64,000 nt of DNA from Candidatus Eiseniibacteriota bacterium. Lineage in GTDB: Bacteria > Eisenbacteria > RBG-16-71-46 > CAIMUX01 > VGJL01. Under the pieces are notes generated by a model. The model was not told where the DNA came from. It did not search any database and was given only the letters and a program-made list of their open reading frames with translations. Location: positions 704,001 through 768,000 of the forward strand of contig CAWBWI010000006.1 of NCBI GenBank assembly GCA_963792585.1. Direction: 5' to 3'. A program made the position numbers and the translations under genes. Below, in pieces: positions 35,246 through 43,108 of this stretch (its first letter is position 1; the number at the start of each line of letters is the position of its first letter).

Positions 35246-37321
35246 ATGTGCATCCCGAGCGCTCACTCATTCTGGTCCCGAGCCGCCGTGCTGCTCGTCT
35301 GGCTCATGATGCTCGCCGGTCCCTTGGCCGCCGGCTCCTCGCACCCGACGGACGCGCTCTCTATCGCAGATCCCGGTCCGCCTCGTCCGACAATGTCCAC
35401 CGGCCGGGATGCAGGGAATCCCGCCGCCGGGGACCCGTGGGGGTATCGCTGGAAGATCGAGCATGCCACCGAGTCGGTCATCTCAGGCGGTCCAGTTCCT
35501 CCGGCTCCCCCGGATCCCCCGACCGACTACGATGCCGAACACTACGCCATCCGCATCGACGTTCAGTTCGACACGCAGACGATCGCCGGAGAGGTGGATC
35601 TTCGTGCGCGCTCACTCGTGGCCCAGTTTACGCAGATGGAAGTCGATCTCCGCCAGAACATGGCGGTCGCTTCGGTCCGTCGCGGTTCGGTCCCTCTGGC
35701 CTTCACCCGATCGAACGATCGGATCCACATCAACTTGGACCGCGCGTTCACCCAGGGCGAGACGCTCACGGTCACGATCGCCTACTCCGGCTCCCCGCTC
35801 TCGGAGGGATTTGGCTGCTTCCGCTTCGCGACCCACGACGGGAGACCCGTGGCCTCGACATTGAGCGAACCGTGGTTCGCGAGGAACTGGTGGCCGTGCA
35901 AAGAGGACCCCGCCGACAAGGCGACGGCGGACCTGATGTTCACCGTGCCCGTCTCGATGACCGTGGTCTCGAACGGGACTCTGGTGTCGAATGTGGCGCA
36001 TGGTTCGACGCGGACCTTCCGCTGGCGAAGCGAGTATCCCATCGCCAGCTATCTCGTGTGCATGGCAGCGACCGACTATGTCCGGTTCGACGACACCTAC
36101 GTCGGGGCGCTGGGCGACTCCATGCCGGTCGAGTTCTACGCCTACCCGGAGGATGAGCAGACTTGCCGCGCCAGGTGGGAAGGAGAAGTCGAGAAACTCG
36201 AGTTCTTCCGCAGCGTATTCGGCGAGTATCCGTTCGTCGCGGACAAGTACGGCATCGTCGAGCAGATTCGCGGCGGGATCGAGCATCAGACCATCACGGG
36301 CTTGCCCCCGGACGGCCTTGGCGACTCGGTGCTCCTGTCGCACGAACTCTCCCATCAATGGTGGGGAGACATGGTGACCTGCGCGACGTGGCACGACATC
36401 TGGCTCAACGAAGGATTCGCCACCTACGCCTCGGGCTTGTGGCTAGAGCACGAGAGCTCCGGGGGCTATGCGGCATTCATGAACGACATCGAGGATGCGG
36501 CGCGCTCTGTCGGTCCCGTCTACCGGACCCGGATCGACACCCTCGAGGACATCTTCAATGCGGCCACCTACGAACGGGCCGCCTGGATCCTACACATGCT
36601 CCGCGGGGTCATGGGCGACTCGACGTTCTTCGGCGCGTTGCGGGACTATCGAGCCGCCTTCGAGTATGCGAGCGCGACGACGGCCGATTACCAGTCGGTC
36701 GTGGAAACGCGCGCGGGACGTAGCGTCTCGTGGTTCTTCGACGAGTGGATCTACGGCGCGGGTGAACCCGTGTACGAGTACTCCTGGCAAGCGGTCGCCC
36801 CCGATCGCGTTCTCGTGCACGTCGAGCAGGTTCAGGCCGGTCCGACCTTCCGCATGCCGATCCCGATCACTGTCAGCACGATGCTGGGATTCCAGCCGTT
36901 CGTCCTGGAAGATTCGCTTCGGTCGCAGACGTTTGACCTCCGGCCCGGCGGCGGTATCGCCGGCATGCAGTTCGATCCCCGGAACTGGATCCTGGAGACC
37001 CACCGCGAGGTTGCATTCCCAGCGGACGTGGAGAGTCCGAGCACGGCGAGCGTTGACGCCTTCCGGATCGAGATCGGCCCCTCCCCGACACGGGGAGAGA
37101 CACAGATCACCCTCGCGGTGTCCGCCGGCCCGGAGCGTCGCGTTCGGGTCGTGATGCATGACGTCACGGGACGGCTCTGCGCGGTCATCGCCGATCGTGT
37201 ATTCCCGGCGGGACGACACACGCTCGTCTGGAATCGCCCGCTCGCGAGAGGCGTCTACTTCGTCGACGCGTCGGGACCGACCGTCGGACGGGCGAGACCG
37301 GCCCGACTCGTCGTCGAGTAG
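35246..37321 (+). CDS. Secreted M1 family zinc aminopeptidase with FlgD/T9SS-like C-terminal domain
   Basis: 'WWPC..DPADKAT', 'GGIEHQT', 'HELSHQWWGD', 'WLNEGFATY'; C-terminal 'PSP...HDVTGR...H.LVW...GVYF'. Confidence 0.92.
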   Translation: MCIPSAHSFWSRAAVLLVWLMMLAGPLAAGSSHPTDALSIADPGPPRPTMSTGRDAGNPAAGDPWGYRWKIEHATESVISGGPVPPAPPDPPTDYDAEHYAIRIDVQFDTQTIAGEVDLRARSLVAQFTQMEVDLRQNMAVASVRRGSVPLAFTRSNDRIHINLDRAFTQGETLTVTIAYSGSPLSEGFGCFRFATHDGRPVASTLSEPWFARNWWPCKEDPADKATADLMFTVPVSMTVVSNGTLVSNVAHGSTRTFRWRSEYPIASYLVCMAATDYVRFDDTYVGALGDSMPVEFYAYPEDEQTCRARWEGEVEKLEFFRSVFGEYPFVADKYGIVEQIRGGIEHQTITGLPPDGLGDSVLLSHELSHQWWGDMVTCATWHDIWLNEGFATYASGLWLEHESSGGYAAFMNDIEDAARSVGPVYRTRIDTLEDIFNAATYERAAWILHMLRGVMGDSTFFGALRDYRAAFEYASATTADYQSVVETRAGRSVSWFFDEWIYGAGEPVYEYSWQAVAPDRVLVHVEQVQAGPTFRMPIPITVSTMLGFQPFVLEDSLRSQTFDLRPGGGIAGMQFDPRNWILETHREVAFPADVESPSTASVDAFRIEIGPSPTRGETQITLAVSAGPERRVRVVMHDVTGRLCAVIADRVFPAGRHTLVWNRPLARGVYFVDASGPTVGRARPARLVVE

Positions 37322-37407: not shown

Positions 37408-38463
37408 TCATTGGATCCGGATCAATTTCCTCAGGCTCACTCCGTCGATCGTCCGCAGGCGTGCAAAGTAGACGCCGGTCTGGACGTGGCGTGTGTGGTC
37501 GTCGAGACCATCCCACGACCAGACATGGGCGCCGGGAAGCCTCGCGGCATCGATCCGCCCCCGTACACGCCGTCCCGCCGCATCAAGGATCTCCAGCCGC
37601 ACCTCCCCTTCCGCAGCGGCCGGCGTCAGCCGGAAGCTGATCTCGGTTGACGCGCGAAACGGGTTGGGCGCGGCCGATTCGATCCTCGAGAGCGCCGCGA
37701 TCCCGGGCAGTCCCGTGTCGACCGCGGAGACAACGCCGCTGAGCAGCGCCCCTTGGATGATCCGCTTATTGCCGGTGGTCTGCTGGAGGAATACAAGCGC
37801 CCGAATATTGTGGAGATTCCAGTCCGGACCCGTGGGAATCGAGATGTGGACCGTCTCGACGTCCCCCGGAAGCGTAAGCTCGATCGGTTCATAGACGATT
37901 CCGCGCGCCACGCGGGGGAAGATCTCATCCCACGCCGGGACGGAGTCCTCCACCACGACCATGGTCGCGTGGAGGTCCGTGAGAAGCGCCAGATCGACGA
38001 GTCGGAACGCGGCATCGATGTGAATCTCAAACGGATCGGCGATGAATCCGCCCGTGATCTCCACCGGACTCACGCCGCCCGTCTCGGCGAGGCGTTCCTC
38101 CACGAGGTCACGAAGCGCCACATAGGTCTGCGTACAGCTTCCGATGCCGACATGGACCCGGCTGCCGTCGACCCGCACGTATGGATACTCGCTCAACCCG
38201 TACCAGTTCGCTCGGACCTCGGCCTCGGGGAGATAGAGTGGGTCGAACCCTGCCCAGTGCTCATCAATCCAGAACAACCGATCTGTACCGTACTCAAGCT
38301 CGAGCAATTCCAACCCGCACCGGGTGTCGTAGCAGGGCGGTCAGCCGAAGTAGTCCGCGAAGTGCTCGATGACGAGGAGTTTTGGCACTTCCGCCGTCGC
38401 AGCACCGGCTATCAGGGAGACGACAAGAAGGGTCAGCAGGGAAGCCACTGCTCTGCGAAGCAT
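37408..38463 (-). CDS. Candidate selenoprotein: secreted Omp28-like thioredoxin-fold protein (UxxC) with FlgD/T9SS-like C-terminal domain; UGA at 38341-38343
   Basis: Signal peptide ORF from ATG 38463 ends at TGA and continues in frame: 'KLLVIEHFADYFG-U-PPC'. Downstream Omp28-like motifs 'H...DP', 'R..WYG...YP....DG', 'VVVED', 'W...N....VFLQ....K.IIQ'. Confidence 0.8.
38311..38329 (-). promoter_or_regulatory. Putative bacterial SECIS element
   Basis: Stem ACCCG/CGGGU with GUG apical loop starting 21 nt after the UGA. Confidence 0.55.
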
Positions 38464-38768
38464 GGGGGCCCCTTTCTGCCGCTCGGCATGGTGGAGTTGC
38501 CTTGGTTTCGCGGCAGAAGGATGATAGCATGTCCGTCCCCGCATTGCCCGTGGAAGCGATGGGGGCCTGCGTCTCCCTGATATTGCGTCCGTATCGCGGC
38601 CGGGCTTGGCTGGATCCCGTTCATCGGCAGCCTGGCATCCCACGATCGGCTTCGTGGCATACATTCAGAAGGCACAGGTTTGGGATGGGACAATCAGACG
38701 GTTCCCATGGTTACTGCCGCCGGCGAAGCGTCCGACCTTCCTTGCCCCACCGTTTCGCATGAAACGAA

Positions 38769-38840: not shown

Positions 38841-40296
38841 TCATCTCGCGAGAACCACCCGCCCCTTCATCACCCTTCCGCCCATCTCGATCCGGGTCAT
38901 GTAGACCCCCGACGGCAACGCTCGCCCCGCTCCGTCGCGTCCGTTCCATCGGATCTCATGCGAACCGGAAGGCTGCGATTCCTGCATGAAGCGGCGGACC
39001 AGCGCACCTGACGGATCGAAAATCTCCAGCGCGACTGACGCCGCCAACGGGAGGTCATACCAAATGACAACCTGTCCCGCGCTGGGATTTGGACCCGCAG
39101 ACAGGAGCCTCGGGGCCACCCCGGTTGGATTCTCATCTTCTTCTGCTCCCGCATTGCCCGTCGCGCCGCGCTTGCAGTAAATCTCCCAGTTCTGATCGCG
39201 ATCGTCGTGCCAGACGACGTGCACGTAAGCCCCGGAAACCGCCACCGATGGTTCCCTCGATTCGGAGAGATTGTCGGTCAGTCTCGCCTCCGGCTCCCAG
39301 GTCGTGCCGCCATCCAGCGAATCCTTGTAGTAGATCTCGGATGTGTCGCCGTTGCGGTTGTCCGGCCAGACCGCATGCACATGTGAACCTGCGACTGCTA
39401 CTGACGGATACCATGAGGCAGAAGCTTCGGCGAGCTCCACCATCCGTTTCCCAGGTCATCCCATTGTCAATGGAACGCGTGTAGTAGATCTTGGGGTCCC
39501 CAAAGCGGAAATCCGCATACACGACATGGACGATGGCATCCGAAACCGCCACCGAGGCAAACTGCGACGGCGTCGACACGATGCTCCTGTCCGTCTCCCA
39601 AGTCACACCATCATCGAGTGATCGCGTGTAATAGATCTGAGGACCTCCCCGCGTGTCCATCCATGTCACATGCACGATCGTTCCAGAAACCGCGATCGAT
39701 GCGAGGTTCTTGCCTGCCGGCGGAGCGGCCGGCGTGATATTCCTCGCCGTTTCCCACGTCGTGCCGTTGTCCGTAGAACGCGTATAGTAGATTTGAGGCC
39801 CAGCGCTCATGTCGGTCCACGCGACATGAACGACCGCACCGCATACCGCCACCGAAGGATGATATCCCACACCCGCCGTGGGTGTGAGGCACACATCCGG
39901 TCCCCACGTCCGACCGTTGTCTAGCGATTGCTTGTAGAATATCCTAGGCGGTCCGATGCGACCGTCATACCATACCACGTGGATAACTGAATCACGAACC
40001 GCCACCGAGGGGCGTTCGGACCAGGACACATCCGCCGTGAGACGCGTATCCGCTCCCCACGTTGTCCCGCTGTCCGTGGAGCTCTTGTAATAAATCTCGG
40101 TGTTGCCATCGCGATCATCGTGCCACACAGCATGGATCGTAGCGCCCGCGGCCGCCACACACCTGGCATTGTTGAAAGAAGTCACGGAAGCATAGGAATT
40201 GTCCGTCAGCCGCACTTCCGGCTCCCATTGTGCAAATGCCGTGAGCGGTGCCAACACGCATATGGCCAACGGCAGCAGACAACTGGTCTTGCGCAT
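38841..40296 (-). pseudogene. Secreted BNR/Asp-box (sialidase-like) repeat protein with FlgD/T9SS-like tail, frameshifted at ~39441
   Basis: Repeats 'S.AV....VHV.W.D.R.G...IYY..S.D.G.TW' continue across two frames; removing one G restores 'WETDVELAEAS'. Confidence 0.8.
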
Positions 40297-40916
40297 TTCT
40301 ACCTGCCTTTCGGTTTGTGTGCCAAGTGCCACATTGCTATCGGTGCCATTGCGCGTGGTCGAGACGGTATGCCCATCAGGAAGGTCTACAATTCGAAGAT
40401 CTGCTTGACCTTTGCGATCTCTATTCGACCATTTTCGCGTCTTGCGCATGATGTTTCCGCAAATGAATAGCAGACGAGCATTGGTGCTCCGGGATCGCAA
40501 CCCGGCACGATCGCGCATTCTCTGATCACCGCAGCCCGGCGACAATCCGCTCTAGAGAAGTCGCAAGGAATATAGGCCCGATAGGCCAGGGTTGTCCAAC
40601 TGCATCTTGGAATGAGAGGGATGCGTCAATCTAATGGGGCTTGATGCTCCAGTGCAGAGGATATCGGCGATTGGATCTGCCCTCAGTCGGGCGGCGCGAT
40701 CCCTCGCGGGACCGGACAGTCCTTCTCCAATCCGAGATGGTTGCGGTATCTGTGGTCGTACTCGAGATCGCCTCGGAGCGCGCGTCGGGGACAGGGTGAT
40801 CGGCCGGGACGTGATCGCCGTCCACCCGGCTCGTCCCGCACGTGAAATCATGTCGACGCTGCCAACGAACTTGCCCTACAGTGTTGCGCGTCGGATCTAG
40901 CCACAGGAGGAGGCCG

Positions 40917-41393: not shown

Positions 41394-43108
41394 CCCGCAT
41401 TTCTCACCAGGTGTAGGAAGAAGCTGATCGAGGGGCGTGCCGGAGGACGATGGATCCTCTCTCGCGCCCCTCGTCGCGCATCCGCCGTTCGATTCCCGAT
41501 CATGAGACCGGAATCTGGCGTCCTGGGAGGTGCGCCAGTCCGCCCGAGGCAGACTCCTCCCTTGTCTCCGTAATCGACGCGGATCTTTGGTGTTCGGGGA
41601 CCTTCGGGGATTAGCCTGGACTCGGATCGTGTCGTAGGTTTTCCATCACTTGGCGGAACAGGTCGGCATGTGGATAGCCGCTGGCCATCCGGAAACGGAT
41701 CCGGCGGACACTCACCGCGATGAGGGCGCCGATCTTCAGGAGTTTCAGACGGATCGTCCCGCACTGAGCTCGCGCCAGTTCCGTTCCCCGCAGTCCGACG
41801 CGCCGCAGGTACTGCAGCAGGACGTAGGCAAAGCTCGAGAAATAGAGTCGCAACTGATTCGACCGCATGCTGGTCGCGCTCGTCCGGTCGGCAAACAGAT
41901 CCAGCTGTTGTTCTTTGATCCGGTTCTCCATCTCGCCGCGGGCGCAGTAGATGGCTTCGTAGAGATCCCGGGCTGGTGCCGATTCAAGAGAGGTCACCAC
42001 GAATCTCGGATTGCTCCCCTTCTCCAGATGCTCCGCTTTCCCTACCACCCGTCGAGATCGACTCCAGCTCTCTCGGGTCCGGTAAAGGAAGTCCCGGAAG
42101 AATCGGGCAGGCTTTCCTGTCCGGCCATAGCGTTTCAGGGCCCGTTTCAACTCCCGGGCAATCTTGCGGATCAACCGAGAGTTCTTCGCCAACCCAAAGA
42201 CGTAGTCGACGCCCTGTTCCTCACACCAAACCATGATCTCTTCCCGTGCAAAGCCTGAATCCGCACGCAAGACGATCTGGGTTCTCGGCCACCGCTGCCA
42301 GATCTGATGAATGATGGGCGCCAACTCCTTGACAGTCCCCGCAGAGGCATCGATGTTCGACGGCCGCAATCGGGCCAGGAGCAGGTGCTCCCCGCAGAAA
42401 GCGTAGAGCGGCAGAAAGCAGTAGTGCCCGTAGTAGCCGTGGAAGAACCGCTCCTCCTGGGATCCGTGCACCGGGTCATCCGTAGCGTCCAGATCCAGAA
42501 TGATCTGTCGAGGGGCGTGATCGTAGGACTCCAGGAACAGATCCACCAGCAATCGGTCGAGCTTTCCAGAGTCGTAGGCGATCCGGTGATAACGATCCCG
42601 CTCGGTGGGAGGAGTGTGCTCCAACCGATTCAGAGTGCTCTTGCCGGCCAGGGCGCAGCCCCGGTCCCGCTCTCGGACCCGATCCTGGCCATCCGGGTCG
42701 GTCTTGCCCACCAGAACGGCAAGCAGGGGATCCCGACGGAGCTGATCGTGGTCGTTGAGGTCCTCGTAGCCGAGGGCCAGGCCATAAATCCTCTGGGCAA
42801 TCAGACCGTCGAGGGAATGCTCAGCCCGGGCAGGATCACGGGCGTCGGTGAAGCAGGAGGCGATCCGCTCCATCATCCGCGTGGTGGAAGCGATCTCTCG
42901 AAGCAGGAGGCCGCCCGCGTCGCTAGTCACATGACCCGCGTCGAAAGCGGCCTCTACGATTCGACGACCAAGGGGTTGGAACGCGAGTTGAGCGGAGTTA
43001 CAGTGTGTCTGCATCGGGCGGACCTCATGATTCGTTGTAGGTGCGTAGACAACACCCTTTTAACGAATCTGTCCGCCCGTTGCTATTCCCCTTGGTGAGA
43101 AATCCGGG
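41394..43108 (-). mobile_element. Complete IS1380-family insertion sequence (1715 bp)
   Basis: Terminal IRs CCCGCATTTCTCACCA / TGGTGAGAAATCCGGG (15/16 match); CTAG on both sides (41390-41393, 43109-43112). Confidence 0.95.
41611..43014 (-). CDS. tnp: IS1380 family DDE transposase
   Basis: 'TSDAG.LLL', 'GYEDLNDH..LR.DP', 'LDLDATDDP.HG.QE', 'RADSGF', 'Y.ARGEMENRIKE'. Confidence 0.96.
   Translation of the reverse strand: MQTHCNSAQLAFQPLGRRIVEAAFDAGHVTSDAGGLLLREIASTTRMMERIASCFTDARDPARAEHSLDGLIAQRIYGLALGYEDLNDHDQLRRDPLLAVLVGKTDPDGQDRVRERDRGCALAGKSTLNRLEHTPPTERDRYHRIAYDSGKLDRLLVDLFLESYDHAPRQIILDLDATDDPVHGSQEERFFHGYYGHYCFLPLYAFCGEHLLLARLRPSNIDASAGTVKELAPIIHQIWQRWPRTQIVLRADSGFAREEIMVWCEEQGVDYVFGLAKNSRLIRKIARELKRALKRYGRTGKPARFFRDFLYRTRESWSRSRRVVGKAEHLEKGSNPRFVVTSLESAPARDLYEAIYCARGEMENRIKEQQLDLFADRTSATSMRSNQLRLYFSSFAYVLLQYLRRVGLRGTELARAQCGTIRLKLLKIGALIAVSVRRIRFRMASGYPHADLFRQVMENLRHDPSPG

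Follow-up and report, generated by a model that had tools for sequence, protein, structure and literature searches.

Previous studies described a family of selenoproteins with a thioredoxin-like fold, GOS_C, with 74 selenocysteine (Sec, U) and 312 Cys sequences (PMC2398784), which is listed as NF045500 with a UxxC motif in Table 1 of PMC13188914. HBP35 of Porphyromonas gingivalis (PDB 5y1a) carries CxxC rather than Sec, has Cys-dependent thioredoxin activity, binds hemin through its C-terminal part without needing CxxC (PMC2907840), and reaches the cell surface via its C-terminal domain (CTD; PMC3120885). Here we describe the gene at 37408..38463 in a 64,000-nucleotide stretch of a Candidatus Eiseniibacteriota genome (GCA_963792585.1, contig CAWBWI010000006.1, positions 704,001 to 768,000; hereafter the window). 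By its sequence, Sec machinery, conservation and predicted fold it is a real hidden selenoprotein gene, and its Sec insertion, location and activity are predictions of graded strength. The best explanation of the whole, which we consider probable, is a 351-residue HBP35-like selenoprotein thioredoxin, predicted to be exported and likely to perform thiol-disulfide exchange at the surface.

The "Omp28-related selenoprotein" of NF045500 is the "Hypothetical protein GOS_C" (PMC2398784), and our family is homologous to it over the thioredoxin and Omp28 immunoglobulin (Ig) domains (model positions ~37-268). In two sequences of the GOS_C supplement compared by eye, Sec occupies the same first position of UxxC, in the flank E-D-F-x-x-x-x-U-P-Y-C-P, and likewise follows a hydrophobic leader. 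Unlike these two sequences, the 351-residue protein has an R-C-G motif in the loop of its selenocysteine insertion sequence (SECIS) and a Cys49/Cys110 pair, and unlike GOS_C it has a tail resembling FlgD and type IX secretion system (T9SS) sorting domains, and a one-residue insertion before U (H-F-A-D-Y-F-G-U). The NF045500 model (cut-off 200 bits) was matched at E<=0.01 by 32 of 34 aligned family members, with 73 bits for the best relative and 16-49 bits for the paralogues; the protein itself had no match at E<=1, and none of 201 genomes of the phylum exceeded the cut-off. Nor was there a match to PF11551 (Omp28, cut-off 34.9 bits); the protein differs from the Omp28 family (PF11551; NF033782 lipoprotein; PDB 2r2c) in matching neither model and in having no lipobox Cys in its leader, U41 being its first Cys-type residue. 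Of the initial annotation of the window, which had proposed an Omp28/thioredoxin fold, the fold is supported by the predicted model and the fold search, and the profile membership is not, as the protein scores on no Omp28 model. We conclude that it probably works like a GOS_C/HBP35 protein, yet belongs to neither NF045500 nor PF11551, and that it represents a divergent branch of an already catalogued selenoprotein type predicted in 2008. A full-text literature search, with subscription journals and bioRxiv supplements outside its coverage, found no paper joining Omp28 with selenoproteins, Eisenbacteria with selenocysteine, or selenoproteins with type IX secretion.

Decoding of the in-frame TGA

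The frame starts at ATG 38463-38461, meets TGA 38343-38341 after 40 codons and, if this TGA is read as U, ends at TGA 37410-37408 with a product of 351 amino acids (aa). The sequence around the site is ...EHFADYFG-U-PPC-YDTRCG.... The initial annotation had described a 40-codon open reading frame (ORF) ending at this TGA and an in-frame continuation, PPCYDTRCG, into ORF 37408-38313 without a signal peptide of its own; both were found as described, the downstream ORF having 301 aa and a TTG start, and the expectation that gene callers would split the gene was borne out by the public protein collection, which holds precisely the truncated 301-aa form.

We consider that TGA codon 41 is almost certainly decoded as Sec. 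The genome holds a tRNA-Sec (68.4 bits, cut-off 47) with a canonical cloverleaf, together with selA, selB and selD above curated cut-offs, selD carrying an in-frame TGA of its own, and this complete set supports the selenoprotein proposed at the outset. Of 61 genomes searched for selA, 57 hold it above the cut-off, and so do 32 of the order's 34 remaining genomes; both misses there are incomplete genomes. The TGA is not a sequencing slip: the site is spanned by contig 3 of DNA run X2, with depth 5.9 and possibly from the source study, and by contigs from three RNA-library runs of three other studies, which carry a relative differing at 18 of 241 letters, and no difference is listed at the TGA or the hairpin in any of the four (15 of the 18 differences being listed). 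The same TGA is present in the orthologues of genomes G004, G005 and G014, with 77, 46 and 50% identity over the two N-terminal domains. Among 80 distinct homologues the codon at the Sec column is TGA in 55 and TGC or TGT in 25, so that TGA or Cys and never Trp stands there in 80 of 80 genomic rows, which were chosen by the motif [U/C]xx[C/U] (the script flagged zero rows without it).

The hairpin ACCCG-GUG-CGGGU, noticed at the outset with its G-initiated loop 21 nt past the UGA, is indeed present. The bacterial SECIS (bSECIS) consensus calls for a loop of 3-9 nt with G in its first two positions, a stem of 4-16 bp, a spacing of 16-37 nt and a minimum free energy <= -7.5 kcal/mol (PMC13188914, section 5), and the hairpin resembles it in its 3-nt loop opening with G-U, its 5-bp upper stem, its spacing and its place within the coding region. 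When forced on a 45-nt window it reaches -7.8 kcal/mol, and it is the best fold after the first 9-12 nt past the UGA (ribosome-covered) are omitted. Precisely this geometry follows 362 of 121,493 TGA triplets (0.3%), and a looser hairpin rule fits 86 of 405 noisy TGA candidates in the genome. Conservation across homologues gives this putative SECIS its real support: across 33 TGA rows, pairing holds for 92.7% of the stem cells, 12 compensatory cells are changed on both sides and 0 of 500 shuffles match, with kin inflating these covariation counts; slid partners score much lower than the true register; and a stem of >=4 pairs whose loop has G at +21 is present behind 43 of 55 TGAs versus 0 of 25 Cys codons. 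In addition, the loop-G codon is CGG in 30 of 33 rows versus 30% of Arg codons genome-wide, the closing G-C is replaced by A-U in the clade of our gene, and the loop of the SelD hairpin in the same genome likewise lies at +21. The Cys-reverted homologues L018, L071 and L089 keep the 5-bp stem, but their loop G is gone (CGC in place of CGG), which makes them a natural SECIS loop mutant. The more distant TGA homologues L097-L105 have no GUG loop at +21 and may use a different SECIS register.

Several observations weigh against Sec decoding or its importance. The naked 60-nt strand folds best into a different structure (z -0.06), a stability equalled by 92 of 200 shuffles, and the isolated hairpin, at -5.9 kcal/mol, marginally misses the -7.5 kcal/mol limit of the consensus; by itself the hairpin is not beyond chance, being weak and in competition with another fold. 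The 80 rows combine the best matches with stop-free and short ones picked by hand, a non-random set with near-identical sister genomes. Further, because Ala or Ser occupies the Sec column in 2 of 45 full-length database representatives (P0004, P0041), the nucleophile is dispensable in some relatives and the residue can be lost.

If the TGA were instead a true stop, within a nonsense pseudogene, through an assembly error or between two separate ORFs, this would agree with the weakness of the hairpin alone and with frame breaks elsewhere in the assembly (SprA in pieces; one paralogue and the upstream BNR gene each in two frames). Such a stop is very improbable, and refuted in practice by the conserved TGA: orthologues at 43-77% identity share it, the contigs of four runs keep it, the SECIS covaries and is lost in Cys forms, and the part after the TGA has neither the first strand of the fold nor a signal peptide. 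A genome-wide reassignment of UGA to Trp or Gly, for which the in-frame TGA speaks and nothing further, is more improbable still, since TGA is an ordinary stop for 301 of 585 long ORFs with high GC at third codon positions and closes gene 37408..38463 itself, homologues have Cys at the column, and default stringency yields no UCA tRNA other than the tRNA-Sec.

Family, paralogues and gene features

The gene has homologues in each of the order's 34 other genomes and, at E<=1e-15, in 41 of the 201 phylum genomes; the motif region of P0002, a same-order homologue labelled Ca. Eisenbacteria by its source, matches locus L018. A quick tree of 79 rows contained a core clade of 52 rows (45 TGA and 7 Cys; support 99 in the Shimodaira-Hasegawa-like approximate likelihood ratio test, SH-aLRT), in which the Cys rows fall in six separate places, which points to repeated Sec-to-Cys reversion. 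Our gene belongs to a four-member short-form clade (99) with F-G-U-x-P-C and the one-residue insertion; judging by the tree, more than one branch seems to have Sec. Paralogues on the same contig have TGA (four) or TGC (one) at the Sec column, and in the long paralogues ~330 additional residues separate the Ig domain from the tail. The Cys paralogue alone exceeds the PF11551 cut-off in the genome. Among the paralogues the x-x dipeptide is diverse (PP, TY, PY, GY, GF, GA, SY). The four long TGA paralogues lie at G000:C6:966194-972815 (-) and G000:C6:898987-900950 (-), and the paralogue at 972106-972815 is split by a frameshift.

The features of the gene are collected in the table. Hydropathy of the signal peptide reaches 2.9, and homologues have a similar leader preceding VP(K/R). 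His69, at position 46 in alignment A1, is conserved almost without exception. Cys49 and Cys110 occur both together in 50 homologues, neither in 29 and one alone in none, a pattern that amounts to about two evolutionary events, not 79.

Table. Features of the selenoprotein gene (positions in the window)
Feature	Position	Strand	Basis
Selenoprotein gene, 351 aa, by almost certain readthrough of TGA codon 41	37408..38463	-	same-length orthologues in G004, G005, G014
Shine-Dalgarno-like AAAGGGG, 5 nt before ATG (putative role)	38469..38475	-	seen in sequence
Predicted Sec/SPI (general secretory pathway, signal peptidase I) signal peptide, residues 1-24, with MLRR, a hydrophobic core and the cleavage site A-T-A	38392..38463	-	hydropathy
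Thioredoxin-fold domain, residues 25-128	38080..38391	-	
In-frame TGA, almost certainly Sec41, first position of U-P-P-C, immediately before helix 1	38341..38343	-	homologue codons, predicted model
U41-P-P-C44 redox motif	38332..38343	-	34 aligned rows: position 41 always U/C, position 44 always C
bSECIS hairpin ACCCG-GUG-CGGGU (38325-38313), loop G at +21 (38320)	38313..38325	-	covariation and TGA/Cys contrast
Codon of Cys49, which overlaps the SECIS loop; Cys49 is likely joined to Cys110 in a structural disulfide	38317..38319	-	co-occurrence
Pro94, invariant (34 aligned rows), predicted cis-Pro loop (Y-P)	38182..38184	-	precedes strand E72-75 of the model; cis putative
Cys110, start of helix 3	38134..38136	-	model and co-occurrence
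Omp28-type Ig-like beta-sandwich, residues 132-245	37729..38070	-	
C-terminal sorting domain, FlgD-Ig / T9SS type A-like, with RKLIRIQ at its end	37411..37671	-	PF13860 match

Predicted export and redox function

The thioredoxin and Omp28 Ig domains of the predicted model superpose on HBP35 as one unit in the fold search, at 14% identity. The host of HBP35 is a canonical Bacteroidota T9SS organism, unlike the present host. The tail matches PF13860 at 33.2 bits (cut-off 27), and the short-form relative P0009 passes TIGR04183 at 24.3. When the protein was searched against its own genome, 150 matches were obtained, most of them to the tail alone. The N-terminal signal peptide of the general secretory pathway that characterizes T9SS cargo is present as judged by hydropathy and the A-x-A motif only. 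Homologues of SprA, PorV and PorU are present in the host genome, SprA in pieces in the assembly; GldM and GldN models had no match in 35 genomes, nor in any control genome, and PorK and PorL were not searched for. The SprA homologue locus, G000:C4:17198-21309 (-), is in several frames, while a single long frame is present in most of the order's genomes; the fragmentation suggests indel errors in the assembly.

From these data we propose the following course of events. SelB-tRNA(Sec) would, with near certainty, bind the GUG-loop hairpin downstream of the UGA and thereby insert Sec. The signal peptide would very probably take the chain across the inner membrane. That the Ig-like tail would then lead it to SprA/PorV, with PorU cleaving the tail and anchoring the rest as shown for HBP35, is a route we favor with some reserve. 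At its destination the Sec41 selenolate would probably attack substrate disulfides and Cys44 resolve the mixed bond, with Cys49-Cys110 as a structural disulfide and the Omp28 Ig domain as a docking surface; the most likely role would be that of a reductase or isomerase for other exported proteins.

Some points count against this proposal. The tail stays below the TIGR04183 cut-off (20 vs 23 bits) and far below that of Pfam Por_Secre_tail, PF18962 (12 vs 27 bits); the activity is borrowed from a fold shared at the low identity given above; the Cys49/Cys110 pairing carries the small number of independent events already noted; and the neighbourhood is conserved only for the convergent M1 peptidase, shared with G004 alone, and indicates no partner. 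The shortfall of the tail under T9SS type A cut-offs and its best structural matches, which are FlgD, would also suit a periplasmic selenoprotein that does TlpA/DsbC-like work on envelope proteins, its FlgD-like tail being an Ig domain of generic kind or directing the protein to a different route, and re-reduction would be easier there. We regard this location as unlikely: the same tail closes very many unrelated long ORFs in the genome, the genome has PorU, PorV and SprA, HBP35 as the structural homologue is exported by its CTD (PMC3120885), and polar and hydrophobic residues alternate at the very end of the protein as in the KVLVP of HBP35 (PMC2907840). The protein might also be exported and use U-x-x-C to bind or reduce metal, haem, peroxide or sulfur species rather than protein disulfides, for which speak the hemin binding of HBP35 via its C-terminal part (PMC2907840), the near invariance of His69, and the widely varied x-x dipeptides of the paralogues, which suggest several substrates. 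That function is slightly less likely again, as an invariant Pro ahead of strand 3 together with U/C where helix 1 begins is the arrangement usual for a thioredoxin dithiol, and hemin binding by HBP35 is independent of CxxC.

Beyond surface thiol-disulfide exchange by this one protein, we offer a wider scenario tentatively, as one that is possible and rather doubtful. One Ca. Eisenbacteria order would use multi-copy surface selenoenzymes delivered by SprA/PorV/PorU, maybe without the classical PorK-N motor, with paralogues redox-tuned by their U-x-x-C dipeptides to provide a disulfide service for well over 100 tail-bearing proteins of the secretome, and our gene would be the minimal three-domain U-P-P-C member. 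Within the clade, the SECIS loop would double as the codon of a structural-disulfide Cys, so that protein stability and Sec decoding would constrain the same three bases.

Neighbouring loci and significance

An exported M1 aminopeptidase with a tail-like C-terminus (35246-37321, +) is convergent with the selenoprotein gene, an arrangement also seen in G004 (66% identity). A sub-threshold match to the c-di-GMP-II-GAG riboswitch (37265-37312, +; 27 bits, gathering 40) lies inside its 3' end and is probably due to chance. Upstream, a BNR-repeat gene with a FlgD/T9SS-like tail (38841-40545, -) lies in two frames (39133-40545 and 38841-39443), probably through an assembly indel or as a pseudogene. 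The window also has an intact-looking DDE transposase (41611-43014, -; PF13701, 524.8 bits), which we take to be IS1380. Elsewhere in the genome, a TlpA-like candidate selenoprotein, ...NFWHYT-U-GPC..., with a 7-bp hairpin at +18 (G000:C3:1081711, -), is a possible periplasmic redox partner.

No new mechanism is involved, as the Sec decoding is ordinary. The gene corrects a systematic annotation error: most calls of the best relatives have no signal peptide and no active site, because 105 of the 150 closest in the database, and 87 of the first 100, have their start beyond the Sec site. Moreover, the clade provides a clean natural series of Sec-to-Cys reversions that lose the SECIS loop G. Further, if the predicted export is true, the protein would be an outer-surface selenoenzyme delivered by a type IX-like system.
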